Assembly: GCA_963843375.1 (NCBI GenBank)
Contig: CAWJKT010000009.1
Span: 256,001 to 320,000, forward strand
Direction: 5' to 3'
Origin: an uncultured Pseudomonadota bacterium
GTDB taxonomy: Bacteria; Oederibacteriota; Muellerivitia; Muellerivitales; Muellerivitaceae
Length of the DNA: 64,000 nt
In this document: piece after piece, positions 426 through 15,817 of the stretch
How the letters are laid out: every line of letters starts with the position of its first letter
How positions within the stretch are numbered: position 1 is the first letter of the stretch
Translations under genes and position numbers: made by a program
The notes under the pieces: generated by a model
The model's database searches: none
Told to the model about the DNA's origin: nothing
Seen by the model: only the letters and a program-made list of their open reading frames with translations

Positions 426-444
426 GAAAATAGGGGGCATGGCT

Positions 445-563
445 TGTCCACGACGGGGACCCCTAAACCCTGAGTGGTTCGAGGGCCTCACCATCCGCGC
501 TCAAAGGGTCGATGAACTCAGGGCAAATTATAGGTCGTCCAATCTGGGAACCCGTCGTGGACA
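445..563. repeat. Cassette-boundary site 1, long form (half site, REP-like insert, full site at 536-563)
   Basis: TGTCCACGACGGGGACCC at 445; CGTCCAATCTG-GGAACC-CGTCGTGGACA at 536. Confidence 0.9.
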
Positions 564-648
564 AACCATTTGGGGCCTATCAACTGATTTTAGACGGGTT
601 TTCGTTTTGAGGTTTTATGAAATTTATAGAGAGTGTATAATGATTCCC

Positions 649-855
649 ATGAAGACCAAGAAAAACGTCTTAACACTTATCAAAAAAATCGAGGCCCTTC
701 CGGCCGACAAGATCAACGAGGTTGAGGATTTCGTAGAGTTCTTGGGTCACAAGGGCTCCGACAGGCAATTGACAAGGGCCGCCTCCAAACTTTCCGAAAG
801 GTCGTTTGCCAAGGTCTGGGATAATCCCGAAGATGCCATCTACGACAAGCTATGA
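649..855 (+). CDS. Antitoxin (DUF2281-like)
   Basis: IEALPADKINEVEDFVEFL...VWDNPEDAIYDKL; overlaps the downstream PemK-like toxin. Confidence 0.75.
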   Translation: MKTKKNVLTLIKKIEALPADKINEVEDFVEFLGHKGSDRQLTRAASKLSERSFAKVWDNPEDAIYDKL

Positions 856-1183
856 TTTCGGGGATGTTCTCCTAGTCCCTTTCCCATTCTCCAACCAAAC
901 TGCCGTTAAGAAACGCCCTGCTGTTGTCGTCAGTTCAAGCACCTACAACCTTTCTCGTCCTGACCTGATTATCCTGGCCCTTAGCAGCCAACCAGCAACT
1001 TCAAATGTGTTTGGGGGAACCAGCCTTTCCCACTGGAAAGGGGCAGGACTTTTGAAGCCTTCAGTTTTCAAGCCCATATTGGCCACGATTGAAAAGAGTT
1101 TGGTCATTCAAAAGCTGGGACGTCTTCATGCTAGCGATCAAAAGACCCTCCAACAGATATTAAAAACAGTTATTCAGGTTTAA
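833..1183 (+). CDS. PemK/MazF family toxin
   Basis: GDVLLVPFPFSNQ..KKRPAVVVS motif. Confidence 0.9.
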   Translation: MPSTTSYDFGDVLLVPFPFSNQTAVKKRPAVVVSSSTYNLSRPDLIILALSSQPATSNVFGGTSLSHWKGAGLLKPSVFKPILATIEKSLVIQKLGRLHASDQKTLQQILKTVIQV

Positions 1184-1200
1184 CTTATTGCCTCTAAACC

Positions 1201-1228
1201 TGTCCAACCTGGGGACCCGGATTGGACG
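1201..1228. repeat. Cassette-boundary site 2 (B-type arms)
   Basis: TGTCCAACCTG-GGGACC-CGGATTGGACG. Confidence 0.85.
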
Positions 1229-1323
1229 GTGTTTTGAGGCCGCCGATTCAACCTTTGGTGTTTGAAGGATTCTTCTTTAGTGATATCATAATGTCATAAG
1301 TGTTATCACTTTGGAGGTCCCCT

Positions 1324-1569
1324 ATGGTTCGTACTCAAATTCAATTGACCAAAAAGCAAACCACCTCGTTGAAAAGAATCGCCCAGGAGAGGCATATCTC
1401 CATGGCCGAAGCCATCCGCCAAGGCGTTGATTTATTCCTAAAGAATGGGATCATCAGTCCTGAGGAGCGCCGGAAACGGGCCATTGCCATTTCAGGGAAA
1501 TTTCATTCCAAGCACACCGACCTTTCCATCCATCACGACAAGTATTTGACTGAAGACTACGCCAAGTGA
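1324..1569 (+). CDS. CopG/RHH-type antitoxin
   Basis: MVRTQIQLT...SMAEAIRQGVD...HHDKYL; GGAGG RBS; 4-bp overlap with PIN gene. Confidence 0.85.
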   Translation: MVRTQIQLTKKQTTSLKRIAQERHISMAEAIRQGVDLFLKNGIISPEERRKRAIAISGKFHSKHTDLSIHHDKYLTEDYAK

Positions 1570-1964
1570 CCACTTTCATTGACACGTCTTTTTTCATCGC
1601 TCTTTTAACGAAAGAAGACCGCTTCCACGCGAAAGCTGATCAAGCTTGGCGATCTTTACTTGAATCGGACGACAACCTGGTTTCCACCAATTACACGCTT
1701 TTAGAGACGTTCTCCCTGATCCAAAACCGCTTGGGTTTGGAAGCTGTTACCGATTTTCAAAGGGATGTTGTGCCGCTTCTATCTTTGGAATGGGTTGATG
1801 AAAACTGTCATGAAGCGGGACTTGCCGCCGTGTTGACCGCCAAGCGAAGGAATTTGAGCCTCGTGGACTGCGTCAGCTTCGAAGTTATGCGGAGGAACGG
1901 AGTTAAGAATGTCCTTACCTTTGACAAGCATTTTGGAGAACATGGATTTCATTGTTTGCCATAA
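1566..1964 (+). CDS. vapC: VapC PIN-domain toxin
   Basis: FIDTSFFIAL...SLVDCVSFEVM...LTFDKHF. Confidence 0.9.
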   Translation: MTTFIDTSFFIALLTKEDRFHAKADQAWRSLLESDDNLVSTNYTLLETFSLIQNRLGLEAVTDFQRDVVPLLSLEWVDENCHEAGLAAVLTAKRRNLSLVDCVSFEVMRRNGVKNVLTFDKHFGEHGFHCLP

Positions 1965-1990
1965 AAGTTAAATGAATTGTTGGTATCTGC

Positions 1991-2018
1991 TGTCCACGAC
2001 GGGGAGGTGTAGTGGACA
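1991..2018. repeat. Cassette-boundary site 3
   Basis: TGTCCACGACG-GGGAGG-TGTAGTGGACA. Confidence 0.85.
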
Positions 2019-2108
2019 AGGGGTTTCCCCGGCCGACAAGCCATTTACTTGACGGTCCCTTTTCCAATGCATATAATTAATGCATATAGTTAATATGCAT
2101 CCCAGGAG

Positions 2109-2321
2109 ATGAAAATGCGGACCACCCTTGAACTTTCCAACCATTTGATCAAAGAACTCATGTCAGTGGAGAAATGGGCCTCCAAAACCCAGGCCATTGA
2201 GGCGGCCATCGACGATTTCGTCCGCCGGAAGAGACTGGATAAACTTATTTCCGCCAGGGGACGCTTGAAGGTGAAAGACGTTTCCTCCGAATTGCGGAAG
2301 ATGGAACTTCATGGCCGCTGA
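2109..2321 (+). CDS. vapB: VapB-type antitoxin
   Basis: MRTTLEL...SKTQAIEAAI; AGGAG RBS; overlaps PIN gene. Confidence 0.8.
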   Translation: MKMRTTLELSNHLIKELMSVEKWASKTQAIEAAIDDFVRRKRLDKLISARGRLKVKDVSSELRKMELHGR

Positions 2322-2700
2322 GATCCTGATTGACACATCGGTTTGGATCGACTATTTCCGCAAGCCGGACAGTGAAACCGGGGACAAGATCGTCAAACAT
2401 TTGAAACGCGGTTCCATATCTACTTGCGGAGTCGTCGTTTTTGAGGTCTTGCAGGGGGCGGCGGACCAAGAAGAGTTTTCTTTCCTGGAAGAGAACCTAA
2501 AAGGCCTGCATTTTCTCGAGGCAAACGCAGAGGCGTTTTTTGAGGCGGGGAAGGTTTCCTACGATTTGCGCAAGCATGGTATTACGCTCCCGTTAAGTGA
2601 CATTCTTATAGGCACTTTAGCCATGTCAAACCATCAAACGATTTGGACCAAGGACCAACATTTCAAAAAAATGAAAGGACTCCATCATCAGTTTTTTTAA
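2311..2700 (+). CDS. vapC: VapC PIN-domain toxin
   Basis: ILIDTSVWIDYFR...LSDILIG...WTKDQHF. Confidence 0.9.
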   Translation: MAAEILIDTSVWIDYFRKPDSETGDKIVKHLKRGSISTCGVVVFEVLQGAADQEEFSFLEENLKGLHFLEANAEAFFEAGKVSYDLRKHGITLPLSDILIGTLAMSNHQTIWTKDQHFKKMKGLHHQFF

Positions 2701-2709
2701 TTAGGCCTT

Positions 2710-2737
2710 TGTCCACGGCGGGGACCCGTCGTGGACA
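2710..2737. repeat. Cassette-boundary site 4
   Basis: TGTCCACGGCG-GGGACC-CGTCGTGGACA. Confidence 0.95.
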
Positions 2738-2809
2738 GCCAGTTCCACAATATTCACATTCTTGCGAGACCAAATCATTGATGGTATAACAGTTATATAT
2801 GGAGCCTAG

Positions 2810-3088
2810 ATGCGGTTTAAGTTCAATAGCAAAAAGAGTAATAGCCTCCGCCGGAACCGGGCACGCGGTATTGGTTTCGAGGAAGCTCAAAGGCTATGGG
2901 AAAGCCCTTACTATCTTGATCAACGTTCGGATTTACCCGAACAATGGCGGGCCATCGGTTGGGTTGTTGAAAGGCTCTATACCGTGATCTACGAAGAAAG
3001 ATCAGATCGCGATGGAGAGTATCTGCATCTTGTTACGCTGTGGAAGTCCACGAAGGAGGAGAGGAAGTTATATGAAAAGCACACATAA
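2810..3088 (+). CDS. brnT: BrnT family toxin
   Basis: F.FNSKKS...RGIGFEEAQRLW...WKSTKEERKLYE. Confidence 0.8.
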   Translation: MRFKFNSKKSNSLRRNRARGIGFEEAQRLWESPYYLDQRSDLPEQWRAIGWVVERLYTVIYEERSDRDGEYLHLVTLWKSTKEERKLYEKHT

Positions 3089-3356
3089 GGCAAAAACGGT
3101 TCCAACGGCGGAGCAAATAGCCCAAATGGTCGATAAGGGGGAGGACATCTCCAAACATTTCACGAACCACGGAAAAATGATGCCGGCCATCCGACGGGTC
3201 AATGTGGATTTCGCGGAAAACATGCTGCGGGAATTGGACAGTTTAGTCCGTGAGATGAACGTGAGCCGCCAGGCGGTCATTAAATCAATCCTTCGCCAGG
3301 GATTGGATCAGCATTATTTGGCTAAGAAGAAACGTCCCCACCTGACGGCTCGTTAA
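3072..3356 (+). CDS. BrnA/CopG-like antitoxin
   Basis: DKGEDISKHF...RRVNVDF...LD....MNVSRQAVIK, C-terminal RHH. Confidence 0.8.
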   Translation: MKSTHKAKTVPTAEQIAQMVDKGEDISKHFTNHGKMMPAIRRVNVDFAENMLRELDSLVREMNVSRQAVIKSILRQGLDQHYLAKKKRPHLTAR

Positions 3357-3370
3357 TCATTTAAACCAGC

Positions 3371-3398
3371 TGTCCACGACTGGGACCCGTCGTGGACA
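3371..3398. repeat. Cassette-boundary site 5
   Basis: TGTCCACGACT-GGGACC-CGTCGTGGACA. Confidence 0.95.
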
Positions 3399-3444
3399 GG
3401 GCAAACCATTGCGTTGTAACTATACTGTAGGGTATACTAAAAAC

Positions 3445-3716
3445 ATGCTCGTCATTTGGGATCCCCAGAAAGCCATTTCCAATCAAAAAATCACGGGGTC
3501 TCATTTGAAGAGGCTCAATCCGTATTGGAATCCGACGTTCAATTGGTGTTGGAGGATAGTGAACACCACGAACAAAGATTCATCGTGCTTGGGTATTCAA
3601 AGAAACTAAACCTATTGGTGGTGGTTTACGCTTACCGGGAAATGGATGTCATCCGGATCATCTCGGCCAGAAAAGCCACACGAAAGGAACGGGAAAACTA
3701 TGAAAAAAGAATATGA
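3445..3716 (+). pseudogene. brnT: BrnT family toxin with a frameshift in an A6 run (about 3485-3490)
   Basis: MLVIWDPQKAISNQK in one frame; HGVSFEEAQ...IRIISARKATRKERENYE in the next. Confidence 0.8.
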
Positions 3717-3957
3717 TTTTTCTAAAGCGAAGGTCCATAAAGGCCCTCTTTTAGCTTCCAAAGGTTCTAAGATTCAGAAAACCTTCCGGTTGGATGAGTC
3801 TGTTTACCATTGGCTTATCGAGGAAGGAAAAAAACAAGGAATCCCTTACCAAACTCTCATGAACTCCATTTTAAAGCGTTCAATGTCCGATAATTCAACC
3901 CTCGAAGAACGCGTTCGTAAAATCGAGCATAAATTAGGCCTGAAAAAAACTGGCTGA
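3700..3957 (+). CDS. brnA: BrnA antitoxin
   Basis: MKKEYDFSKA...FRLD...GIPYQTLMNSIL. Confidence 0.85.
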   Translation: MKKEYDFSKAKVHKGPLLASKGSKIQKTFRLDESVYHWLIEEGKKQGIPYQTLMNSILKRSMSDNSTLEERVRKIEHKLGLKKTG

Positions 3958-3995
3958 TTTCCCTGGACGAATTAGTTTTTGTAAATCGAAGGCCT

Positions 3996-4023
3996 CGTCC
4001 ACGACGGAGACCCGTCGTGGACA
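3996..4023. repeat. Cassette-boundary site 6
   Basis: CGTCCACGACG-GAGACC-CGTCGTGGACA. Confidence 0.95.
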
Positions 4024-4275
4024 ATAAATGCTTCAATAATTTAAATAAGTTTAAATTGCATGGTTTGTTTTAAAGGGCTGGGGGGGATTAACCGGAGCGG
4101 ATTGGTCGCGGGCCCAAAATGGAAAATGGAGACTGGGCCCGTTTTTATTGAATAAAATCACCTTTTAATTTGTTGGCTAATTTCCTTGACTGTCACCTTT
4201 TTTGCTAATAAGATTCCCCCCAGTTAAATGGTTTCCCATGCTTTTCCCCTCCCCATATCATGCCAAGGTGGTCCC

Positions 4276-5541
4276 ATGAGATTTCGAATCTTAGGATTAT
4301 TTTCCCTTTTGGTGGGAATGACTTTTTTAACCCTCGGTTGCCCATCCAAGTCCAACAGCCCCTCCGGCCCTACCGCTCCCGCGCCGACTAATACGCCCGC
4401 CGTAACATCCACGCCTACCAACACCGCGACCATTACGTCTTCTTCCACCCCTACTGGAACACCCACCAAAACCGGCACCCCAACCCTTACTGGAACACCC
4501 ACCAACACAGCCACTGCCAGCCCCACCGCCACGATCACCCCGACACCCACGATCACCGCGACCGCCACGATCACCAATACACCGACTGATTCCGCTACTT
4601 CCACCCAAACCGGAACGTCCACTGACACGGCCACAGTCTCACCCACCGCCACGGTCACCAGTACCCCAACCAACAGCCTAAGCCCCACCCCGACGGGTAC
4701 GCCGACCGATAGCCCCAGTCCCACTCCGACCGGCACACCGACCAATACCTTCCAATTCACGCCCACGGCCACGCCTAGCGCCACCACTACCGAAACCCCC
4801 AGTTTGACTCCGACCAGCAGCCCCACACCAACTCCCAACTGCACGGGTTCCTATTCCATATCCGGAAACGTGGATTACACGGGCTCGACGGTTTCGGGCA
4901 ACAGCGTGGCGGTGCTTATCATTTCACAACCCGACCTTGGCGGCGGCAGCGGTGATGGTTGTAACCCATTCTCCTCCGTCCTCGGAACCACGCCTGGGAG
5001 CTATTCCTACAACATCTCCACTATTCCCTCGGGCAGTTTTTACGTTGTTGGGGTTTACGGAACATTCGGAAGCAACGGACCCAACCTGGGGGATTACGTT
5101 GGGGACTACGGCAACGATTGTCCCCTCACGGGTTCCACCTTGGTGGCCCTCTCCAGCGGCAATCCCAGCGCGAGCAATGTCGGCGTGACCTTCGGCAACA
5201 CTTGGACGCTTTGGGGCATCAACGCGACCGTCAACTACAGCGGATCACAAACCAACGGTGAAATCTATGTCGGGCTCTTTTCCGCGGTCAATGTTGGCGC
5301 CGGAACTTACACCCAAATTACGAATACCGGCGTCAATTCTTCGGGCCAGACAAAAACCCTCATCGATCAAATCAATAGCTGTGGCTCGACGGGCGCGTCC
5401 GTTTACGTGATTGGATGGTACGGCAGCAATCCCAACGGGCCGAACGCGGGGGACAATTACGTTGAGTTCTCCACCACCGAGGTGAACAACCCAACGACGA
5501 CGACAACCGTTAATATCAGCAGCTCCGCGACTTGGCCATAA
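4276..5541 (+). CDS. Surface lipoprotein with long Thr/Pro/Ser linker and two related beta-rich C-terminal domains
   Basis: Hydrophobic signal ending LTLGC; about 160 aa T/P/S tract; [18 protein letters not shown] versus [20 protein letters not shown]. Confidence 0.75.
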
Positions 5542-5580
5542 GATTGGCCAAGTTTTTTGGGGACTAACGCCTATGCCGAC

Positions 5581-5608
5581 AAAGCCCCGCCTCTGGCGGG
5601 GCTTTTTT
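5581..5608 (+). terminator. Rho-independent terminator
   Basis: AAAGCCCCGCC-TCT-GGCGGGGCTTTTTT. Confidence 0.9.
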
Positions 5609-5805
5609 GTCTTCATGGAAGAAGGACCGGCAAGGGTGGGGAATAATATTTGAACACCAAATCCGGAATCATCACCGAATAGAAAACCCTCAAAAGCACT
5701 TCCAAAAGATCGAATTTTGGCCGTCTATCCCGCTTTTATCGAAAGGGCTAATTTGCCCCAGGTTCTTTACGCCTCATTCGCTGAATAGTGAGGTGAAGAA
5801 AGGAC

Positions 5806-5833
5806 TGTCCACGACGGGTCCCCGTCGTGGACA
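5806..5833. repeat. Cassette-boundary site 7, inverted orientation
   Basis: TGTCCACGACG-GGTCCC-CGTCGTGGACA; spacer is the reverse complement of GGGACC. Confidence 0.95.
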
Positions 5834-5882
5834 GGGGAAATTTTGTTTAGTGAAGTCTGATTTTATTTTTTGGAGAAGAAAA

Positions 5883-6485
5883 TTGTCTTATCGAATAATA
5901 CAGCCACCATTTACGCTAAAATTCAAGGAAATGCCAAAAACTGAATTGAAAGCCTATTTTGATTGGTTTGTGTCTCAAATCCCTGAAAGATTATCTGTAT
6001 TGGAATCTTCGGTGAATGAAACAAAAGGATTTGAAGATTGGTCGGCTAATTATTCTATATCTTCATTATCTTCATTAAAAAAATTAGGAAAATGGTTTGA
6101 AACTAAAGCCAATACACGGACAAGAACCAAACAAGAAATGGAGAAAATTAGAGGTAATTTCAATTTTCCTACTGAGATTTCAGATCAAGAACTGACGAAT
6201 GAAACTTTTTCAATAGCAATTGATATTGGGATGTATTTTGCAGAGGTCTTGAGGAAAAAGCATAAAAATTTGCAATGGAACTTTATAACGAAAGGGCGAA
6301 AAGACTGGATTGATTATGGCCAACCTATTTTGATTGGGTTTGACATTATTGGTCTGAATCCAGTTCATATTATGGTTACATTGGCATATGGATTTGTAAA
6401 AAAGAGTAAGTCGGGGGAAAGATTAAGTGAACTCTTTTCAATTTGGTCCGGGAAAGCCAAGAAAAGAGCGAAGGGTCCAAATTAA
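5883..6485 (+). CDS. Hypothetical protein (AT-rich cassette)
   Basis: TTG start after GGAGAAG; ORF fills the interval between sites 7 and 8. Confidence 0.65.
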   Translation: MSYRIIQPPFTLKFKEMPKTELKAYFDWFVSQIPERLSVLESSVNETKGFEDWSANYSISSLSSLKKLGKWFETKANTRTRTKQEMEKIRGNFNFPTEISDQELTNETFSIAIDIGMYFAEVLRKKHKNLQWNFITKGRKDWIDYGQPILIGFDIIGLNPVHIMVTLAYGFVKKSKSGERLSELFSIWSGKAKKRAKGPN

Positions 6486-6505
6486 CCTTTTTGTGATGAA
6501 TCGGT

Positions 6506-6533
6506 TGTCCACGGCGGGGACCCGTCGTGGACA
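6506..6533. repeat. Cassette-boundary site 8
   Basis: TGTCCACGGCG-GGGACC-CGTCGTGGACA. Confidence 0.95.
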
Positions 6534-6564
6534 ATGGAAACCTGGATTTGATTTCTATATCAAC

Positions 6565-6972
6565 TTACATCCAACCTGTCCGCCATTGTTGGCGCGATAG
6601 CCACACAAAGATCAGGATGATCAGCGGCGCCACCACATGCATTACGGGTTCGCCGCCGTGAAGAAGGTATGAAGCCGATGCGCCCAACAGGTCAAAGGTA
6701 AAACCCGCATAAGCCCATTCTTTGAGGGTGCGGAATTTTTTACTGCCGAAAAGAACCGCAATACAGCCGAGAATCTTGGCCACTCCCAAAATAGTACAAA
6801 GGTAAGCGGGGTAACCCAAGGCGGTAATCCCTTGAACATTCTCCGGTGCAGCCATCAGCATCATCACTCCACCCGATCCCATGGCTGAAACCACCAAGAG
6901 CGTCTCGATCCAATAGAATATCTTCGCCATCGTCATGTATTTCGCTTTCATTTCCGCTACGTTCTTCGCCAT
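6565..6972 (-). CDS. DoxX-like membrane protein
   Basis: LGYPAYL..ILGVAKILG...LKEWAYAGFTFDL. Confidence 0.85.
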   Translation of the reverse strand: MAKNVAEMKAKYMTMAKIFYWIETLLVVSAMGSGGVMMLMAAPENVQGITALGYPAYLCTILGVAKILGCIAVLFGSKKFRTLKEWAYAGFTFDLLGASASYLLHGGEPVMHVVAPLIILIFVWLSRQQWRTGWM

Positions 6973-7000
6973 TTCACTTCTCCTTTGTTTTGATTCCTGC

Positions 7001-7474
7001 TTAAACTTTATTCACAAACGACTCGAACTTTTTAAGCTGATGATTCCAGGCCAGGTCCGAATCCAGCTGTTTGCGGAAGGTCTTGGCGTTCTCCCCAAAC
7101 TTTTCCAAATTCCGATGCTCCAGCTTGACCCAGGTTTTATCTTTCCCCTCGGATACAAAAGTGATTTCCACCTCGGTCGCGAAAGAAGGATCCAATTGAA
7201 AAGAGGCGGTGAGGTGCCACGCTAAAAGAATTCGATTCGGCTGCTCCCAGGCCAGCACCGTGGCCCAGTCACCCCGGGTGCCGTCTTCGGCTATTCCATA
7301 AAAACGGCCGTTCACCCTTGTCTCCAGAACCGCTTGTTTCAGTTGGGATTTGCCAACGCGGTATTCCCGGGGATACCAAGCGTCGATATTCTCCGTAAAG
7401 GCCGTGAAAGCCTCCAACAGGGGAATATTCACAAAAACCTGCTTCCGAATCGGTTCGATCATTGAGTCGGTCAT
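7001..7474 (-). CDS. SRPBCC/AHSA1-like protein
   Basis: AF.AFTE.I..W.P...VLAWEQPNRILLAW...TEVEITF...LEHRN. Confidence 0.85.
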   Translation of the reverse strand: MTDSMIEPIRKQVFVNIPLLEAFTAFTENIDAWYPREYRVGKSQLKQAVLETRVNGRFYGIAEDGTRGDWATVLAWEQPNRILLAWHLTASFQLDPSFATEVEITFVSEGKDKTWVKLEHRNLEKFGENAKTFRKQLDSDLAWNHQLKKFESFVNKV

Positions 7475-7800
7475 GGTTTTTCTTTCATTTTTTTATTTTT
7501 CTCCACGTATTCCTTGAACGCTCCCAAAGACTTGTCCCAAAAACCGTCCAAATAGTCCCTCATGGTTTGAACTCCCTTGGGGTCCACCTGATACAGTCTT
7601 CGGGTGCCCCGCTGTTCTACCAACACCAACCCCGCTTCTTTCAACACCTTCAGATGTTGTGAAACCGCAGGTCTGGAAACATGCAAGCCTTCGCTTAGCT
7701 CCACCACGGCTAACGGACGCTTAGCTAGGCGCTCAAATAACTCTCGCCGGGTGGGATCACCTAAGGCCTGAAATGCTTTCGCTATAGTTGGGTTAGCCAT
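7471..7800 (-). CDS. ArsR/SmtB family transcriptional regulator
   Basis: FQALGDPTRR...VSRPAVSQHLKVLKEAGLV. Confidence 0.9.
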   Translation of the reverse strand: MANPTIAKAFQALGDPTRRELFERLAKRPLAVVELSEGLHVSRPAVSQHLKVLKEAGLVLVEQRGTRRLYQVDPKGVQTMRDYLDGFWDKSLGAFKEYVEKNKKMKEKP

Positions 7801-7807
7801 ATCAACC

Positions 7808-7823
7808 GTAAGTATATACTTAC
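7808..7823. promoter_or_regulatory. Probable ArsR operator
   Basis: Perfect palindrome GTAAGTATATACTTAC just upstream of the ArsR start. Confidence 0.6.
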
Positions 7824-7938
7824 CGATATGTCGATTGTCAAGATTCAATTATTGGAAGGGAAAGGTTGGAAATTAGACGGGAGTAAATAACATTTAAACG
7901 TGAGCTGGCCGTTACAATTGTAACGAAATGTAACTGGA

Positions 7939-7966
7939 TGTCCACGACGGGGACCCATCGTGGACA
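7939..7966. repeat. Cassette-boundary site 9
   Basis: TGTCCACGACG-GGGACC-CATCGTGGACA. Confidence 0.95.
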
Positions 7967-8076
7967 GAGAATAGTTTTGCAAAGAGCATGGACAAGTGGG
8001 ATTGGGGCAGGAAGTTTCGAAAGGAATCGTAGAATTAAAACGGAAAAATATACCGAGGATGGTCGATTTGGACGTT

Positions 8077-8664
8077 CTAAAGCCCTAAGCCTTGAAGAAA
8101 GGCTTCTGATTCACGCTCGAACTGTTCTCGTATGTATGAAATGAGGGCCATACGCCAAACACCCTGCAAGTAAGTAATGATGACCTTGGTAATTGTGCCG
8201 GTGTCATAACTTTTAGGAAGACGCCCTGCTTTCTTATCTTCATTGATCTTGTCTTCGATCAGTTTTTGAGTTTGATTTATCCTGGTAATAATAGCTTTTC
8301 TTAATTCGTTATCAGCCATAACGTCTTCGGAAAGCATCCCAGCGAACATGCAAATATTAGAAGGGCATTTGGGATCATCGAGACTGTCAAACATGGCGCT
8401 TAGCATGGCCCGCATCCCAAGACTTGTACTCGGGGCTGATGTCAGGGCAAGGCTTCTTTTTTTGCCTTCGATCTCCCCATACCTCTTCAAACATTCGATA
8501 TAGAGGCGCTTTTTGCTTTTGATGGTATTGTAAAAGGAACCTTCCCCGATCTTCATCGCCTTCAGAAGGTCTCTTAGCGATGCACCAGAGTATCCGTCAC
8601 GCCAAAAGACGCGCATCGCTTGATCCACTGCCTTATCGTAATCAAACTCCACTTTTCTAGCCAT
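8077..8664 (-). CDS. TetR/AcrR family regulator
   Basis: MARKVEFD...AMRVFWRDGYSGASLRDL...GSFYN. Confidence 0.9.
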   Translation of the reverse strand: MARKVEFDYDKAVDQAMRVFWRDGYSGASLRDLLKAMKIGEGSFYNTIKSKKRLYIECLKRYGEIEGKKRSLALTSAPSTSLGMRAMLSAMFDSLDDPKCPSNICMFAGMLSEDVMADNELRKAIITRINQTQKLIEDKINEDKKAGRLPKSYDTGTITKVIITYLQGVWRMALISYIREQFERESEAFLQGLGL

Positions 8665-8745
8665 GTCTCATTTTACCTCTGCGAAATATCTGAAGCAATC
8701 TATTTGTAGCAAATGTGACAATATCATTTGACTGCCGTGCCATTA

Positions 8746-8767
8746 TTCTGTAGCATGTGCTATAGAA
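8746..8767. promoter_or_regulatory. Probable TetR operator
   Basis: TTCTGTAGCA-TG-TGCTATAGAA inverted repeat in the divergent intergenic region. Confidence 0.55.
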
Positions 8768-8812
8768 TTTAAGCGGAGATATTTCCCACGATGTTGTGGT
8801 TAGGAGACGAAA

Positions 8813-9706
8813 ATGAACGAAAGTATATTGATAACAGGAGCAAATATTGGGCTTGGGAAAGAAACCGCCCGACAGTTAGCCCTGAAAAAAGAAACAAAAA
8901 AGGTAATTCTTTTTTGCAGAAATCAAGAAAAAGCCGAGGCAGCAAAAAAGGACCTTGAGGAGAAAACGGGAAAAAAGATTTTTGAAATTATTATTGGGGA
9001 TGTTTCGGATGCGAATTCTGTAAGAAAAGCAGTAGAAAAAATAAAGGACCCTATTGATGCCGTCATTTTAAACGCAGGTGGAATGGTTGGGAAAACTGCT
9101 GCGCAAATCACACCCTCTGGCATGAATAATTTGGCCGCGACTAATATTTTAGGTCATGTGGTTCTAGTGGATGAGCTTCTAAAACAAGATAAGTTAAAAA
9201 AAGTAGTACTATTTGTAAGTGCGGAAGCTGTACCGGGAGTAAAGCCTCTCGGAATGAAACCAGTTTCAATGAAGACTTCCTCTGTGGATGAGTTTGCTGC
9301 GGTTCTTGATGGTTCATTTTTTGGTAAAAAGTTCGATGTAACCCAAGCATACGGATACGTTAAATATGTAGGAACGATGTGGACGTTATCAATGGCAAGA
9401 AAATATCCTGATCTCAAATTTGTTGTTATGAGTCCCGGCAACACAAAGGGAACTCTGGCACCGGATAACTTGCCCCAGCCTATGAGATTTATGTTGAAGT
9501 ACGTAATGATGCCTATTGTGTTTCCATTGATGGGTGGAATGGTGCACGAGATAGAGGTAGGTGTAAAACGCCTCGTCGATGGCATTTCGGATGAGCGATA
9601 TAAAAGTGGCGTTTTTTATGCGAGTAAAGAGGGTAAGCTATCGGGGGACGTGGTTGACCAGAGCACGTTTTTTCACTGCTTTGAAAAATACTACATTTCA
9701 AGATAA
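8813..9706 (+). CDS. Short-chain dehydrogenase/reductase (true end may be 9743 if a T run is mis-called)
   Basis: ITGANIGLGKETA, LNAG, YGYVK motifs. Confidence 0.85.
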   Translation: MNESILITGANIGLGKETARQLALKKETKKVILFCRNQEKAEAAKKDLEEKTGKKIFEIIIGDVSDANSVRKAVEKIKDPIDAVILNAGGMVGKTAAQITPSGMNNLAATNILGHVVLVDELLKQDKLKKVVLFVSAEAVPGVKPLGMKPVSMKTSSVDEFAAVLDGSFFGKKFDVTQAYGYVKYVGTMWTLSMARKYPDLKFVVMSPGNTKGTLAPDNLPQPMRFMLKYVMMPIVFPLMGGMVHEIEVGVKRLVDGISDERYKSGVFYASKEGKLSGDVVDQSTFFHCFEKYYISR

Positions 9707-9745
9707 CGCTGATAAAGCAATTCACCGGAATATTGTGGCCTAGCG

Positions 9746-10384
9746 ATGAAAAAAGTGTTGGGTGAGCTAACTTGGGCCGCTTCTTATGTTTTTCTTGTCC
9801 TGGGATTCCGGGCTTGTCTTCATGCAGAAACGTCAACAAGTGAGGAATTGCTGGCTACCTATCCCCCCGCACAGTTTAAATTGGATTTCAAGGATGATGG
9901 GGAGCAGGATACGCTGACATTGACCTGCAAAAAGGTCAAAGATTATTCGGTGGATCCTGATACGAAAGAGAAAATCTCGGAGAAAAAGTTTGTTTGGTAT
10001 CAATTTCACATGACCATTGTTTCGCCAAACCATGAAACCCTCTGGGATGATACCTATTCAATTAAAGACGAGGATTACAGCGGGCTTTTTGAAAACTTCG
10101 ATACCCCCTTCCTAACGCCAGCGGTTTATATAAAAAAATATTTTTCAGTGAAATTCAACCACATTGTAAATTGGAAAATAAGTAAAGATGAAATCGATGA
10201 AGATTTAATTAAACAAAAAATCAAAGACACGAAAGTGAAGGTTCGGGTGGAAGATGTTGAAAAAGAGATTCTTACTGGCAAGCATACTGTCGTATTTTAC
10301 CGAGGTGACTGGGCGGTGGACTTGAGGCAGGCGGTGTATTCAAAAAAGCTTCGTAGTGCGGTTGGCTTAGCATGCCCTTATTAA
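9746..10384 (+). CDS. Secreted hypothetical protein
   Basis: Signal-like N-terminus; stop 9 bp before site 10. Confidence 0.6.
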   Translation: MKKVLGELTWAASYVFLVLGFRACLHAETSTSEELLATYPPAQFKLDFKDDGEQDTLTLTCKKVKDYSVDPDTKEKISEKKFVWYQFHMTIVSPNHETLWDDTYSIKDEDYSGLFENFDTPFLTPAVYIKKYFSVKFNHIVNWKISKDEIDEDLIKQKIKDTKVKVRVEDVEKEILTGKHTVVFYRGDWAVDLRQAVYSKKLRSAVGLACPY

Positions 10385-10393
10385 GGCTACCCT

Positions 10394-10421
10394 TGTCCAC
10401 GGCGGGGAGCCTTCGTGGACA
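10394..10421. repeat. Cassette-boundary site 10
   Basis: TGTCCACGGCG-GGGAGC-CTTCGTGGACA. Confidence 0.9.
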
Positions 10422-10535
10422 AGGAAATAAGGCAATAAACGGATAAATGAATATCACCCTTTTAATAGTGAATTGGATAATTGGCCCGTTTGGAATACAA
10501 TCTGAATAAGCTAATGTAAGCAAAGGGGAACGGTC

Positions 10536-10769
10536 ATGAGTCTCGCCGTCAAAGTACCTGTGGACCTTGAAAATCTTATCCAACAGCTTTCCGTGAAAGA
10601 CAAAATCAAGCTGGCCCACGAGCTCGAAAGGCAGACCCGGCGCGAACGTTGGACCCCCCTTCTCAACCGCATCCAAAAACGGACGGCCAAAAATCCGGTC
10701 ACTGATAAAGAAATAACTGCGATTGTCAAAGAAGCCAACCGGGAATTACATGGCAAAGGCCGTCGTTGA
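10536..10769 (+). CDS. Putative antitoxin
   Basis: 77-aa ORF overlapping the PIN toxin; DKEITAIVKE C-terminus. Confidence 0.65.
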   Translation: MSLAVKVPVDLENLIQQLSVKDKIKLAHELERQTRRERWTPLLNRIQKRTAKNPVTDKEITAIVKEANRELHGKGRR

Positions 10770-11163
10770 TACCAATGTATTGATTGGTATTCTTCTCGGA
10801 AGCCATAATTGCCTGGCGGTGCGCGAGGCTTTCCTGGATGGCCTTTTTGACATCCTCATTTCACCTGAACTCGCCGCCGAGTTCATCATCACCTGCCAAA
10901 AACCAAAACTTTCCAAACTCATTCATCCTGGTGATGTCGCGGACACGATGGAGCTTTTAAAAAGCGATGCGGATTGGGTTGCTCCAAAAGTTAAAATCTT
11001 CGCAATCCGTGACCCCAAGGACAATCCCGTATTGGAATGCGTTGTCGCAGGGAAGGCCGATTTCATCATTTCGGGCGACAAAGACCTACTCGATCTCAAA
11101 TCTTTCCGGAAAATTAAAATTATTAATCCTCGGCAATTTTTAATGCTTTTGAAAAGGGCTTAA
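10750..11163 (+). CDS. PIN-domain putative toxin
   Basis: AVVDTNVLI...RDPKDNPVLECVVAGKADFIISGDKDLL. Confidence 0.9.
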   Translation: MAKAVVDTNVLIGILLGSHNCLAVREAFLDGLFDILISPELAAEFIITCQKPKLSKLIHPGDVADTMELLKSDADWVAPKVKIFAIRDPKDNPVLECVVAGKADFIISGDKDLLDLKSFRKIKIINPRQFLMLLKRA

Positions 11164-11171
11164 CTCCGAGC

Positions 11172-11199
11172 TGTCCACGACGGGGACCCCAAAGGAACA
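11172..11199. repeat. Cassette-boundary site 11 (right arm degenerate)
   Basis: TGTCCACGACG-GGGACC-CCAAAGGAACA. Confidence 0.8.
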
Positions 11200-11265
11200 A
11201 TAGTTTAAAGGCAAAAGGGATAGTAATTTGTTTGATGCAAATTTGGTATCATGTATAATACCAAT

Positions 11266-11694
11266 ATGAAACCATTGAGAATTGTACTGGACACCAACAT
11301 TCTCGTCTCCGCTTTAAGGTCGCGCCTAGGCGCTTCGCACCAGTTATTATTGGCGGTGGGCGACAAACGGCTTCAACTTCAACTATCAGTGGCGTTGTTA
11401 TTGGAATATGAGGCTGCCATTAAAAATCCCAATAGCGGCATCAACCTTTCGGCGGATGAAAAAGACGATATCCTGGATTATCTCTGCGGTGAAGCGAAGC
11501 ACTGTAAAGTGCATTACCTTTGGAGACCTTGCTTGAAAGACCCGGGAGATGACATGGTCCTGGAAGTGGCAGTTGCTTCGGAAGCAAGTGGGATTGTCAC
11601 TTTTAACAGGCGGGATTTTAAAGGGATTGAGGCTTGGGGCCTAAAGATTTATACACCCCAGGAAATTTTGAAGATTTTAGGAGGCCATAAATGA
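11266..11694 (+). CDS. PIN-domain putative toxin
   Basis: IVLDTNILVSALRS..GAS...WRPCLKDPGDDMVLEVA...IVTFNRRDF. Confidence 0.9.
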   Translation: MKPLRIVLDTNILVSALRSRLGASHQLLLAVGDKRLQLQLSVALLLEYEAAIKNPNSGINLSADEKDDILDYLCGEAKHCKVHYLWRPCLKDPGDDMVLEVAVASEASGIVTFNRRDFKGIEAWGLKIYTPQEILKILGGHK

Positions 11695-11930
11695 GTGCCA
11701 TTAGCTTGAGATTACCGAATAACCTTCACCGTTCCGTCCGGGAATTGGCGGGAAAGGAACATGTTTCGATCAATCAAATGATCACCTTGGCCCTTGCGGA
11801 AAAAGTCTCAGCCTTGATGGCGGATGAATATTTGGGCCGCCGGGCCAAGCGTGGAAGCAAGGCGAAATTCCTCAAGGCGATGGGGCATGTTGAAAAAATC
11901 GAGCCAGAGGCCAAAGACAAGTTACGGTGA
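11691..11930 (+). CDS. RHH/HicB-like antitoxin
   Basis: ISLRLPNNLH...SINQMITLALAEKVSAL; ATGA overlap. Confidence 0.8.
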   Translation: MSAISLRLPNNLHRSVRELAGKEHVSINQMITLALAEKVSALMADEYLGRRAKRGSKAKFLKAMGHVEKIEPEAKDKLR

Positions 11931-11986
11931 CCTTCTGAGGTTTCCTTGAATTGGTTAGGCGACAACTAAAGAATGATCTGGAAGGT

Positions 11987-12014
11987 TGTCCACGACGGGG
12001 ACCCGGGGTGGACA
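11987..12014. repeat. Cassette-boundary site 12
   Basis: TGTCCACGACG-GGGACC-CGGGGTGGACA. Confidence 0.9.
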
Positions 12015-12085
12015 ATATCAATTTGGGAAACGTTGTAAACATTTTGGTTCAAATCATTAATCCAAAAACAGGGAGGTATAAGAGC

Positions 12086-12763
12086 ATGAAAAATTATTTG
12101 AAAAACCTGGTGCTTTTGTTCTTGTTGTTGGTCCGCGTTGCGGGGGCCCAATCCGGCAACCTGCAACCAAATGATTTTGAAAATTCCGCAAAAGAACAAC
12201 TAGTGTCCCTAAAGGAAACCGTTTCAAGTTTGACCAATGAAAAAGGAGATCTCAGCGACAGGCGCGGTGATTTGACTCTACGGATATTAAAGGAATATTT
12301 GAATGACAAGGCGGATGAAGCGACATCCCAAAAGAACACACAAGGAGCCGCTTATTACCAAAAAGAGAGCTTGGACCTTCAATCATTGCATGACGATATT
12401 TATGCCCATAGCATTAAAATTAGGGACCTCAACCATCAGATGGAAAACTTGCGTGTCGGTTTATACACCGAAGTCATTGATAGATTTACCCAGAGTTTTG
12501 AAAATGATAAAAACTCCAAAGCCGTCTCAATCCTCAAGGAATGCAAAGGTTTCCTTGAAAAGGCTCAATCCATTGTGGAAAAGAAATTTGAGCTGGCCCA
12601 AAATGCCACCGAGGTTAAGAAGAATGGTAATTTCCAAACCGTACCCGATATCCGCAAGCAGATCGATGAACTTCAAAAACAATACGATAAGCTCATTTCG
12701 GACACCCAGGTGAAAATGAAACAAATTGGGTTGGATAAAAACAATCCTCTACTCAATATCTAA
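12086..12763 (+). CDS. Secreted helical/coiled-coil hypothetical protein
   Basis: GGGAGG RBS; signal peptide ending AGA-Q. Confidence 0.65.
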   Translation: MKNYLKNLVLLFLLLVRVAGAQSGNLQPNDFENSAKEQLVSLKETVSSLTNEKGDLSDRRGDLTLRILKEYLNDKADEATSQKNTQGAAYYQKESLDLQSLHDDIYAHSIKIRDLNHQMENLRVGLYTEVIDRFTQSFENDKNSKAVSILKECKGFLEKAQSIVEKKFELAQNATEVKKNGNFQTVPDIRKQIDELQKQYDKLISDTQVKMKQIGLDKNNPLLNI

Positions 12764-12906
12764 TCTCAATGTCGGTCGGTGATCGGGGAGGACATTTTTT
12801 GATTCTCATCCCAGGCTTCGGTCCGTTTCTCTCTTTTCCCCGTCCCCCAAAATCCCTAGTCAGAATCGCAAGTAGCGCCTTTTGAAATGTTGCAATGCAA
12901 GTATCT

Positions 12907-12991
12907 TGTCCACGGCGGGGACCCCGTTCGGCTCCCTTTGGTCGCTCAGGGCAAATTATAAGTCGTCCAATCTGGGGACCCTGATTGGACA
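12907..12991. repeat. Cassette-boundary site 13, long form (full site at 12964-12991)
   Basis: TGTCCACGGCGGGGACCC, insert, CGTCCAATCTG-GGGACC-CTGATTGGACA. Confidence 0.9.
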
Positions 12992-13056
12992 GATGAGAAG
13001 TAAGAAATATCTCGCTTGGATTGAATTTAAAGGGATGAATCTAAAAGAGGCCTCCT

Positions 13057-13971
13057 GTGTTTAAGTTATCAATGATATCAATTTTTATTTTTGCCGCACA
13101 AATCACGTTCGGCGGAGAACTTCAAGCAATAGTTTATTGTAGTGGTACTAATGAGGATGATTTGGGGTTGTGTAGTATCTCGCCCGAAGGTACAAAGCAC
13201 TCCTGCTTAAATGATCGAGATCATTCACTTTTAAATAATCATTATTCCTCTCCAGCTTGGAAACCCAAAAGCAAAGAACTTGTGGTCGAATACGCAAAAC
13301 CTGATGGGGATCGAATACTGGAATTAATTGATGGCCTTGGGAATAAGATTCGCGAAGTTAACAAATCCTTTAATTTTATGAGACCCGTTTGGAGCCCCGA
13401 TGGGAGCCACATTTATGCGTTGAAGTATGGGATAGGGCCACAAATAGGACAATGGGATTCAAATGGGATGAACTTTAAATTTGTACCCATTGTGGGCGCG
13501 CCTAACAACACGAACGCCCCTAATAGCCAAGGTGATTTTCAAATGATTTCTTTCAGCCCTTCAGGGAAAAGCGTCGCTTTGCTCAACTACGGGTTCAAAC
13601 AGATCATTGTAGCTAGTGTGAAAGAACAACAATTTGTCGCTCAAAAAGAACTTCCGACGAATTTTAATTACGTGGCCCAGTCGGCATGGCTTGATGAGAG
13701 TCATTTGCTATTTGTCGGGAGGTTAAATCCGGGGGCTGCCAATCTTTGGGAACTGAACATTGGGGATGGTTCTACGCGTTTAGTGGAAATTCCTAACCTT
13801 TCGCTTCAGGATTACTTTGCCCTCTCGCCGGATCGAAAATCAGTTGTTGTTTGCGCGACAGAAAAAAATCAAAATTTGTGTTGGAGTCTTTGGGAGTATT
13901 TGTTGGGTTCTCCCGCGGCCAAGAGACTTACAACAAGAAATCTGGATTCCGGCCCTACCTGGGGGGACTGA
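13057..13971 (+). CDS. Secreted TolB-like (PD40) beta-propeller protein
   Basis: Repeated PAWKP / PVWSPDG / SFSPSGK / LSPDRK motifs. Confidence 0.7.
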   Translation: MFKLSMISIFIFAAQITFGGELQAIVYCSGTNEDDLGLCSISPEGTKHSCLNDRDHSLLNNHYSSPAWKPKSKELVVEYAKPDGDRILELIDGLGNKIREVNKSFNFMRPVWSPDGSHIYALKYGIGPQIGQWDSNGMNFKFVPIVGAPNNTNAPNSQGDFQMISFSPSGKSVALLNYGFKQIIVASVKEQQFVAQKELPTNFNYVAQSAWLDESHLLFVGRLNPGAANLWELNIGDGSTRLVEIPNLSLQDYFALSPDRKSVVVCATEKNQNLCWSLWEYLLGSPAAKRLTTRNLDSGPTWGD

Positions 13972-13991
13972 GTATTAACGGTTGCAAAGCT

Positions 13992-14076
13992 TGTCCACGA
14001 CGGCGACCCCGTTCGACTCGCTAAGCTCGCTCAGGGCAAATGATAGGTCGTCCAATCTGGGGACCCGGAGTGGACA
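13992..14076. repeat. Cassette-boundary site 14, long form (full site at 14049-14076)
   Basis: TGTCCACGACGGCGACCC, insert, CGTCCAATCTG-GGGACC-CGGAGTGGACA. Confidence 0.9.
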
Positions 14077-14115
14077 GAAGAAAAAAGGATTGAATTTCTT
14101 GTTTAATGTCGCGAG

Positions 14116-15045: not shown

Positions 15046-15059
15046 AAATAAATTAAAGT

Positions 15060-15087
15060 TGTCCACGGCGGGGACCTGTCGTGGACA
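15060..15087. repeat. Cassette-boundary site 15
   Basis: TGTCCACGGCG-GGGACC-TGTCGTGGACA. Confidence 0.95.
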
Positions 15088-15814: not shown

Positions 15815-15817
15815 AGT

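Follow-up and report, generated by a model that had tools for sequence, protein, structure and literature searches.

Integrons, the textbook bacterial device for stockpiling and reshuffling genes, owe their definition to a special integrase and to attC sites that act as folded single strands. The stretch of DNA analysed here (hereafter the window; all 64,000 nt from position 256,001 to 320,000 of contig CAWJKT010000009.1 in assembly GCA_963843375.1, our source genome G000) opens on an array of small gene cassettes separated by short palindromic sites, whose left and right arms occur in mixed combinations. This raises the question of what the sites are and how their arms came to be mixed. We propose that they are probably the crossover sites of a conservative site-specific recombination that shuffles small cassettes by exchange in the site centre, and that the array was built into one chromosomal pseudo-site. 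When genomes are compared by sequence, cassettes are seen to move singly, arms to travel with their own side, the ends of the array to be degenerate, and relatives to have an empty site.

In the mechanism that we propose, strand exchange would take place in the invariant, asymmetric centre of the site. Because the exchange would fall there, a cassette would own both a right and a left half-site; the mobile unit would be its genes with a right half-site in front and a left half-site behind, each site in an array would join two cassettes, and hybrid sites would be the normal product of exchange rather than exceptions. We infer that a dedicated recombinase acting on double-stranded DNA does the shuffling. 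The data support a central crossover in cassette shuffling, with sites unlike those of integrons, as the new element here: a soil bacterium would possess an integron-like system with neither the integron integrase IntI nor attC.

Half-site linkage and the probable position of the exchange

The site framework is GTCCA-N4-GGGGACCC-N4-TGGAC, which spans 26 bases, or 28 with a flanking T and A (T at position 0 in ~84% and A at position 27 in ~82% of sites). When the first 16.2 kb of the window was searched against 31 genomes of the family, single window cassettes recurred at scattered places with 76–91% nucleotide identity, and the matches ended at sites. Sites were then pooled from G000, from 60 stretches of related genomes around matches to window cassettes and from the loci of genome-collection and metagenome scans; other G numbers denote related genomes, L numbers fetched loci and C numbers contigs. 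Each site was extracted with 200 bases on either side and duplicates were removed, giving 637 unique sites, 597 of them with at most two mismatches. All-against-all comparison of the flanks by BLAST yielded 391 site pairs with a homologous flank, 173 upstream and 220 downstream. Since only two pairs share both sides, one of them a near-identical duplicate from two data sets, the neighbour relations of cassettes are essentially never conserved between genomes.

The earlier note on this DNA, made from its letters alone, had proposed a check: whether a cassette found again in another genome, beside different neighbours, still has the half-arms that belong to it. For this check, identity was scored position by position in site pairs and compared with 1000–2000 permutations in which site cores were redealt among all sites; pairs within families are not independent, and the permutations preserve the family structure. 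As one large family of downstream flanks proved to be a group II intron, 21 intron-adjacent sites of the 597 were removed; 165 upstream-only pairs (57 families) and 139 downstream-only pairs (49 families) remained. Pairs sharing only their downstream flank were identical at right-arm positions 19–21 far more often than permuted sites, with no excess at the left arm, and pairs sharing only their upstream flank showed an excess at left-arm positions 7–8 and none at 18–20. The check was thus supportive on the 597-site set, and the same pattern was obtained with 246 sites, with 419 sites, and with all 597 including the intron-adjacent ones. Observed and expected identity, and the number of permutations reaching the observed value, were as follows:

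Upstream-only, position 7: 0.95 observed, 0.81 expected, 0/2000
Upstream-only, position 8: 0.78 observed, 0.69 expected, 82/2000
Upstream-only, position 18: 0.49 observed, 0.46 expected, 571/2000
Upstream-only, position 19: 0.48 observed, 0.44 expected, 418/2000
Upstream-only, position 20: 0.46 observed, 0.46 expected, 964/2000
Upstream-only, position 21: 0.62 observed, 0.51 expected, 39/2000
Downstream-only, position 6: 0.82 observed, 0.83 expected, 1199/2000
Downstream-only, position 7: 0.91 observed, 0.81 expected, 66/2000
Downstream-only, position 8: 0.62 observed, 0.69 expected, 1712/2000
Downstream-only, position 20: 0.67 observed, 0.46 expected, 1/2000
Downstream-only, position 21: 0.68 observed, 0.52 expected, 15/2000
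Downstream-only, position 28: 0.63 observed, 0.46 expected, 5/2000

With flanks at least 93% identical, the right N4 was the same in 14 of 19 downstream-only pairs versus 7 of 29 upstream-only pairs (baseline 12.5%), and the left N4 in 20 of 29 upstream-only versus 10 of 19 downstream-only pairs (baseline 35.1%). Uncommon right arms (among them GCAT-TGGAA, AGAG, GCGT, ATCC, and GCCG with a centre ending in CCA) are common to downstream partners whose left arms and upstream DNA differ, and rare left arms (CTAC, CGGT) are common to upstream partners with differing right arms. In a stricter control, cores were shuffled only within genomes, using the 246 sites of known genome. Left-arm identity in upstream-only pairs was then 0.887 versus 0.788 (reached by 57/2000) and right-arm identity in downstream-only pairs 0.672 versus 0.526 (85/2000); the two crossed comparisons were not significant (647/2000 and 862/2000). 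These results support the view that each arm moves with the cassette on its own side, the right arm with the one downstream and the left arm with the one upstream.

Taken alone, the linkage data bracket the exchange between positions 8 and 19. Across the 637 sites, variants at positions 15–17 co-occur with variants of the right outer pentamer (24/88 versus 58/549, odds ratio 3.17, p = 1e-4) and show no association with those of the left outer pentamer (odds ratio 1.47, p = 0.27). Since positions 15–17 go with the right arm, the crossover would lie to the left of position 15. Together with the half-site linkage and the ends of the array described below, these centre variants support the earlier suggestion that arms have been reassorted by exchange in the central spacer.

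The array, its ends and the empty site

The genes that flank the array, for a sugar transferase and an epimerase, lie 0.3–0.7 kb apart in all five relatives checked versus 29.6 kb here. In a genome of the same genus (G054), this gap opens with GGTTCGA-GTCCAATCC-GGGGAGTC-ATTTGGAAA, which nearly matches the 3' end of the genome's tRNA-Asn. Several genera (L511:270-302, L512, L514) have, behind the sugar-transferase gene, a fragment that reproduces the final ~25 bases of tRNA-Asn (GGTTCGAGTCCAAYCCGGGGAG). Its counterpart in G000, at G000:C9:242520-242562, lies 13.4 kb before the window begins, and ARAGORN calls no tRNA gene at the fragment. Also outside the window, at G000:C9:242537-242562, the first array site reads GTTCGA-ATCCAACAA-GAGGACCC-TTAGTGGAC and combines a degenerate, tRNA-like left half with a proper right arm. 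The last site, at window position 15819, has a proper left arm, and from position 15 onwards its right half is similar to the empty site. Entry of cassettes into a chromosomal pseudo-site through central exchange would leave just such ends. Judged from these sequences, the tRNA-Asn-like fragment is the apparent entry point of the G000 array, its two halves now bounding 29.6 kb that would have been built by successive insertions between the sugar-transferase and epimerase genes.

Within the window, the pattern GTCCA-N16-TGGAC (one mismatch allowed) has 14 matches between 537 and 15086 against 1.64 expected, a number reached in none of 100 shuffles. The earlier note had sorted the arms into an A and a B type; the A arm has 30 matches in the window versus 2.39 expected, and the B arm alone is barely above chance (8 versus 4.11; 2/100 shuffles reach 8). 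Inspection of the flanks revealed half-sites, consisting of left arm and centre only, at 446, 12908 and 13993, and no T run behind sites, which are located just after stop codons. The GC content of the array region is 0.42–0.47 versus ~0.50–0.57 in the rest of the window. Neither the window array nor the empty sites of relatives hold a tRNA according to ARAGORN, and Rfam gave no match in window positions 1–16500 at E ≤ 1. The sites and cassettes are as follows (Pfam, homology search or pattern search given where used):

446..462, +: half-site with A-type left arm and centre (GTCCACGACGGGGACCC) and no right arm; upstream junction of a mini-cassette (from the sequence)
463..536, +: body of a non-coding mini-cassette, 74 nt, ending in the conserved CTCAGGGCAAATTATAGGTC; gives site 537 its B-type left arm
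537..562, +: hybrid site, B-left (ATCT), centre GGGAACCC, A-right (GTCG) (pattern search)
563..1201, +: cassette, DUF2281-like antitoxin and MazF/PemK toxin (Pfam); homologous DNA at 8 other places in relatives
1202..1227, +: site, B-left (ACCT), B-right (GGAT) (pattern search); a contig from another study agrees
1228..1991, +: cassette, ribbon-helix-helix (RHH) antitoxin and PIN toxin (Pfam); 86% identical copy with other neighbours in G044
1992..2017, +: site, A-left, variant centre GGGGAGGT, right arm GTAG-TGGAC
2018..2710, +: cassette, VapB and PIN (VapC) (Pfam, homology search)
2711..2736, +: site, CGGC / GTCG
2737..3371, +: cassette, BrnT-like toxin and RHH protein (Pfam, homology search)
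3372..3397, +: site, centre variant TGGGACCC
3398..3996, +: cassette, 66-aa open reading frame (ORF) and BrnA/CopG-like antitoxin (Pfam); 90% identical copy in G070
3997..4022, +: site A/A, centre GGAGACCC, strong hairpin (-14.4 kcal/mol)
4023..5806, no strand assigned: cassette, 437-aa frame with no Pfam match; atypical composition (GC 0.52, GC skew -0.17)
5807..5832, -: inverted site, the only one in the window, perfect A/A arms, centre on the + strand GGGTCCCC
5833..6506, +: cassette, ORF with no Pfam match
6507..6532, +: site, CGGC / GTCG
6533..7939, -: cassette, minus-strand genes for a DoxX-like protein, a 157-aa ORF and an ArsR-type regulator (Pfam)
7940..7965, +: site, CGAC / ATCG
7966..10394, no single strand: cassette, TetR regulator (-), short-chain dehydrogenase (+), 212-aa ORF (+) (Pfam)
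10395..10420, +: site, CGGC / TTCG, centre GGGGAGCC
10421..11172, +: cassette, PIN_3 protein (Pfam)
11173..11198, +: site, good left arm, degenerate right arm (CAAA-GGAAC)
11199..11987, +: cassette, PIN_3 and RHH/HicB-like antitoxin (Pfam); 88% identical copy in G070
11988..12013, +: site, A-left, intermediate right arm GGGG-TGGAC
12014..12907, +: cassette, 270-aa ORF of a family not recognised by Pfam
12908..12964, +: half-site (left arm and centre, 12908-12924), then 40-nt mini-cassette body (12925-12964)
12965..12990, +: site, B-left (ATCT), B-right (TGAT); a contig from another sequencing run agrees
12991..13992, +: cassette, 304-aa PD40 / beta-propeller-like protein (Pfam)
13993..14049, +: half-site (13993-14009), then 40-nt mini-cassette body (14010-14049); 86% identical to 12905-12999
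14050..14075, +: hybrid site, B-left (ATCT), right arm GGAG-TGGAC; a contig from another study agrees
14076..15060, +: cassette, 309-aa ORF of a family not recognised by Pfam
15061..15086, +: site, CGGC / GTCG, centre GGGGACCT
15087..15818, +: last cassette, VapB and PIN (Pfam, homology search)
15819..15844, +: terminal site, good left arm (GTCCATGGC), centre GGGGAGGC, degenerate right arm (GAAATGAAA); right-hand junction of array and chromosome

The site list and arm sequences of the earlier note are all correct, including a B-left/A-right site at 537, B/B sites at 1202 and 12965, A/A arms at most others and the intermediate right arms at 11988 and 14050. That the hybrids might be consensus errors was examined in Logan contigs, which come from other sequencing runs and are contigs rather than reads. 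Because they cover sites 1202, 12965 and 14050 with zero differing letters, such errors are unlikely there; for sites 537 and 11988, full coverage was not seen among the matches listed. Many loose contig ends fall exactly at site borders, and may simply be contigs of other arrays aligning through the repeat; neither they nor the single joint described below weigh for or against excision of cassettes.

Toxin–antitoxin genes make up much of the list: MazF, three VapBC-like pairs, BrnT/BrnA-like genes and two PIN_3 genes by Pfam, alongside DoxX, ArsR, TetR, dehydrogenase and beta-propeller genes and several unknown ORFs; some of the genes lie on the minus strand. The odd right arm of site 11173 accompanies the same downstream cassette in G070 (pair G0C9_267173 / L046_525). 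Homologues of window toxin–antitoxin cassettes (~78–85% identical) with no recognisable site within 1.5 kb occur at L021 (G053:C49), L024 (G051:C4), L032 (G069:C30) and L033 (G071:C27), so these gene pairs also exist outside arrays. The 437-aa frame of cassette 4023-5806, just before the inverted site, shows weak resemblance in its DNA to eight or more further loci of the genome. Upstream of the epimerase gene, 240 bases (within window 15855-16145, minus strand, overlapping a 96-aa minus-strand frame) recur with 78% identity 62 kb downstream at G000:C9:334666-334903 and are conserved in three other genomes; the repeat may be a shared regulatory leader of sugar-nucleotide genes.

Three of the four B-left arms, those at 537, 12965 and 14050, form the end of a conserved unit of 40–74 nt, and only site 1202 has a B-left arm with no such unit. 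The order is an ordinary left arm and centre, then 40–74 bases ending in CTCAGGGCAAAT(T/G)ATAGGTC, then GTCCAATCT and a centre, and finally any right arm. Eight units were picked from the site collection and aligned; as they sit in different genomes behind different genes, the unit behaves as a minimal non-coding cassette, putatively composed of a degenerate right half-site and a B-type left half-site and inserted into ordinary sites. The three B-left arms would accordingly be the left half-site of an inserted mini-cassette. In the stretch 445-563 the outer arms still pair, as expected for insertion into an A/A site. The possibility that the unit is a remnant of a tRNA was rejected: its likeness to tRNA-Asn is confined to a GTCCAAYC-GGGGA part, and ARAGORN finds no tRNA in the array.

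G000 holds ~85 site-like sequences (at most three mismatches), clustered in arrays on contigs C6, C9, C10 and C18. The strict pattern is present in 24 of the 30 other genomes of the family and in none of 68 genomes that represent the phylum's other 22 families; with a reversed pattern as control, no genome scanned gave a match. At least 195 stretches matched in a genome collection with one genome per species, and the 80 matches listed were nearly all from candidate division FCPU426 or unclassified metagenome bins, with single ones in an Aestuariivirga and a Firestonebacteria bin. A metagenome scan matched at least 168 stretches. Conservation of the outer GTCCA/TGGAC and of the centre is 93% or higher among the 597 sites, and the outer pentamers and asymmetric centre are constant across 14 genera. 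Neighbouring sites are co-oriented in 185 of 189 pairs at a median spacing of 830 bases, with cassette units of 0.06–2.4 kb. Among the papers listed in literature searches, those on FCPU426 include none on this system, and those on cassette, toxin–antitoxin, palindrome and integron-like systems all deal with classical integrons or unrelated topics.

Arm pairing, alternative explanations and known systems

The earlier note had described the A and B arms as two types, each roughly self-complementary, with compensatory changes. This premise was not confirmed. Among 250 sites, the left N4 varies little (CGAC 136, CGAT 41, CGGC 30) and the right N4 covers a broad spectrum (GTCG 76, ATCG 44, GGAT 27, TTCG 16, GCAT 13 and many rarer). 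Fully Watson–Crick N4 pairs occur in 19.2% of these sites versus 19.75% after shuffling, and in 115 of the 597 sites (19.3%) versus 19.0%, the observed value being reached by 885 of 2000 shuffles. The sequence ATCG, complementary to left CGAT, stands opposite it in 9 of 41 sites and opposite left CGAC in 30 of 136. B-left arms, with A at position 6, are rare (23/597), and their right arm ends in AT in 7 of the 23 versus 118/597 overall; outer left and right pentamer variants are likewise independent (odds ratio 1.12 in the 637 sites). As single-stranded DNA, hybrid site 537 folds weakly (-2.5 kcal/mol, z +0.39); for the A/A site 3997 the values are -14.4 kcal/mol and z -5.3. Because the arms assort independently and hybrid sites make poor hairpins, pairing is not under selection, which argues against models that need a folded strand. 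The sites look like protein-recognition sites rather than hairpins, and two self-complementary arm classes are neither needed nor supported.

Several observations weigh against shuffling by central exchange, and should be set beside the evidence given so far. Most of the data are metagenome-assembled genomes. Neither an excised circle nor a presence/absence variant of a cassette was seen in Logan contigs, and the sole joint found there, from 6532 to 7942, has just 26 letters on one side. Upstream-only pairs show some linkage at position 21, and some have the entire site or its right arm in common (L093_4056/L093_5002; L068_1412/L376_947); the pair L336_444/L353_713, with identical upstream flanks, has a doubly complementary change, CGGC..GCCG versus CGAC..GTCG. 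The left-arm linkage rests on low diversity, and its difference at high flank identity (20/29 versus 10/19) is not significant. The centre being nearly invariant, the crossover is bracketed by the sequence comparisons between positions 8 and 15 rather than mapped, and rare centre variants, almost never common to either type of partner, are too few for fine mapping. Positions 9 and 18 are highly variable and yet follow neither flank, even at 96–100% flank identity. Finally, no recombinase was found among 55 ORFs flanking seven G000 arrays, where Pfam recognised housekeeping and cargo genes only, and none can be tied to the sites with confidence. The two variable bases beside the centre (position 9, C/T; position 18, G/A/T; for example in window 3997-4022) are mirror images, both in CpG steps; their variability might reflect a mutational hot spot, methylation or a footprint left by the exchange itself.

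The alternative that survives best, although we judge it improbable, is general homologous recombination or gene conversion between short repeats, for instance after uptake of foreign array DNA, with no dedicated enzyme. Such recombination would also part the arms wherever it fell in the 26 shared bases, the analysis turned up no dedicated recombinase, and five array-bearing genomes have no serine recombinase at all. However, 26 bases with eight variable positions are very poorly suited to RecA-type exchange, and such recombination would leave unexplained the outer pentamers and centre fixed across 14 genera, the co-orientation of 185 of 189 site pairs, and the entry of the first cassette into a pseudo-site that shares only its tRNA-like half.

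A true integron-type system, with attC-like folded single-strand sites that are cut at one edge and travel with one cassette, is very unlikely. It would account for arrays of small, mostly co-oriented cassettes rich in toxin–antitoxin genes, for the many arrays with no integrase nearby, as in clusters of attC sites lacking integron integrases (CALINs), and for group II introns attracted to the sites, as they are to attC. Integron attC sites measure about 55–140 nt, have two box pairs and conserve structure rather than sequence; the sites described here are 26–28 bases long, with no second box pair, no conserved bulges and no conserved pairing. In integrons the crossover falls at the 3' edge of the site, which therefore travels with the upstream cassette, and the R' box of attC is 6 bases; here the right arm and positions 15–17, ~12 bases, follow the downstream side. 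No IntI was found in the 31 family genomes: none reaches the TIGR02249 cut-off (265 bits), the best score being 84.5 bits. Four integron features were thus compared; the co-oriented array is found, and the other three (IntI, attC-type sites, crossover at the 3' edge) are not. Cassettes here also differ from those of integrons in that they may carry genes on either strand, and in having two half-sites each and short, sequence-conserved sites with a central crossover. 

The attraction of group II introns to attC is reported in PMC3001079, and a kind of group II intron that inserts behind inverted repeats in PMC1702495. In our data, a group II intron at L105:2025-4001 (G048), with an RVT_1 and GIIM ORF and Rfam matches RF02003 and RF00029, sits three bases behind a site (TGGAC-ATC, then GTGCC); intron 5' ends also stand directly behind the sites G000:C9:252487-252512 and G000:C18:59735-59760. 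The introns thus home to cassette palindromes much as group IIC introns do to terminators and attC.

That the sites are instead static structural palindromes, such as repetitive extragenic palindrome (REP)-like elements, mRNA-end hairpins or terminators, whose arms differ by point mutation and whose hybrids are decayed hairpins, is equally hard to credit: A/A sites do form very stable hairpins, sites do follow stop codons, and group II introns do stand behind 17 and, in the other orientation, before 4 of the 597 sites, but left and right arms do not covary, no T run follows the sites, the sites gather in arrays instead of being scattered through intergenic DNA, the neighbours of a cassette change precisely at sites, the half-site linkage and the empty-site comparison need exchange inside the site, and neither G000 nor G070 has a Y1 transposase of the REP-associated (RAYT) type.

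If the sites are indeed crossover sites with central exchange, their nearest parallel would be the dif modules of Acinetobacter Rep_3 plasmids. According to PMC13141974, these have 28-base pdif sites of 11-6-11 layout that bound small modules, often toxin–antitoxin genes, and are acted on by XerC/XerD; crossover inside the site gives hybrid junctions, and recombination takes place between identical or near-identical spacers. Site length, small modules, internal crossover and hybrid junctions would thus be shared, and the length of 28 bases would fit the Xer 11-6-11 layout. Mobile elements target both kinds of site, IS1202-family elements homing in on pdif (PMC10132070) and a group II intron on cassette sites. 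In contrast, pdif orientation alternates (C and D modules) whereas cassette sites are co-oriented in 185 of 189 pairs; pdif spacers vary whereas the centre here is one fixed sequence; and pdif sites are plasmid-borne and resemble the host dif, whereas the cassette arrays are chromosomal, at several loci, and unlike the dif-like site of their host.

Tandem accretion, at tRNA genes, of islands that lack an integrase, as in cis-mobilizable and integrative mobilizable elements (CIME/IME), offers a further likeness in that repeated att sites separate packets of genes and the outermost sites are hybrid with the chromosomal target. It differs from the present arrays, with their units of 0.06–2.4 kb, near-perfect palindromes, many non-tRNA loci and no integrase at the array ends; the tRNA-linked integrases of G000 sit at tRNAs other than the tRNA-Asn-like pseudo-site. 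Crossover sites of serine recombinases (hix/gix, resolvase site I and the att cores of large serine integrases) have a geometry in which a non-palindromic central dinucleotide fixes direction, and the cassette site might be read likewise, as 12-2-12 around a non-palindromic GA.

Should shuffling by central exchange prove correct, the outcome of integrons would have been reached with short double-stranded sites cut in the middle, cassette platforms would have evolved more than once, and integron-finding software would miss them. The cassettes are many and co-oriented, fill several arrays in each genome and are completely reshuffled between species. As a recombination site, the palindrome would be very small, defined by its sequence and naturally variable in one arm, and the half-site rule would serve in practice to mark off cassettes and follow how they move in metagenomes.

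Candidate recombinases

Ten G000 recombinases (eight tyrosine and two serine) were searched against 1.5 Mb of DNA around sites in other genomes and metagenomes (3859 frames of at least 100 aa), and the sole type recovered was a serine recombinase. In G000 this is a truncated gene, G000:C9:137160-138005, of 281 aa with resolvase catalytic and 'recombinase' domains, which ends exactly where its 510–570-aa relatives begin their zinc ribbon. The short form (281–289 aa) is 70–78% identical across four genera (L482-L485, L504, L509, L489, L495); frames of 281–329 aa match in five genomes of the family and shorter pieces in others, and outside the family only the long form was found. The long relatives adjoin tRNA genes and have no sites. 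In eight of nine related-genome loci, a site in the opposite orientation lies 3' of the short or fragmentary gene, ~16–60 bases away in seven and ~275 after one fragment; the ninth locus stops at a contig end. The right arm is degenerate in seven of these eight sites (AAAA-GGAAC, AAAG-TGAAC, GTAG-TAGAC, CTAG-GGGAC). A second, unrelated short serine recombinase is placed likewise on a metagenome contig. The G000 copy has no adjoining site within four mismatches of the framework, and no consistent site occurs at the 5' end of the gene. Because PF00239 is absent from all five further array-bearing genomes searched (G044, G047, G050, G053 and G066; 89–99% complete, with 9–27 strict sites each) and several copies are fragments, the gene is only a candidate, albeit one that a 12-2-12 site with an asymmetric central GA would suit.

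A Xer-like recombinase, G000:C10:182366-183469, is single-copy in 29 of the 30 other family genomes and in the sister family; a search of the phylum's other 67 genomes at E ≤ 1e-30 did not recover it. Its spread matches that of the sites, which is weak evidence because relatives share everything. At the start of the gene lies a dif-like palindrome, ATTTCATATAA-CTATAA-TTATATGAAAT (G000:C10:182387-182414, L475:2387-2414), which occurs once in the genome (at most three mismatches) and at the same place in three of six relatives fetched, identical or arm-conserved in G047 and G046 and as a variant in G068. It has no arm sequence in common with the cassette site, and with this separate site of its own the Xer-like recombinase was ranked low; gene and adjoining dif look like a one-recombinase Xer system. 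Six integrase paralogues of ~370 aa were also set aside, as they adjoin tRNA-Asp, Ser, Arg and similar genes and only two have site-like sequences nearby, as was a 516-aa frame beside the C18 array whose weak integrase match falls in a GC-rich, apparently frameshifted stretch. No IS110-type transposase was present in five genomes searched. The Y1 transposase (PF01797) has no match in G000 (80% complete) or in G070, which is 99% complete and has the most sites; it is present in G054, G047 and G050.

On this evidence, an enzyme of some other kind is quite possible, a tyrosine integrase acting in trans is a tentative choice, and the truncated serine recombinase is a doubtful one. A fully specified version of the proposal seems unlikely as a whole: in it, a whole family of the phylum FCPU426 would own a platform of independent origin from integrons, with double-stranded 28-base palindromic sites that recombine any with any thanks to their one fixed asymmetric centre. 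A large serine recombinase that has lost zinc ribbon and coiled coil would for that reason read just ~13 bases per half-site and exchange strands at the central dinucleotide, and the platform could seed arrays at tRNA-like pseudo-sites anywhere in the chromosome.

Three tyrosine recombinase genes in a row (431, 340 and 423 aa) lie at G000:C8:95063-98359 in the layout of a 'recombinase trio', and the TIGR02249 search recovered similar trios in several relatives.

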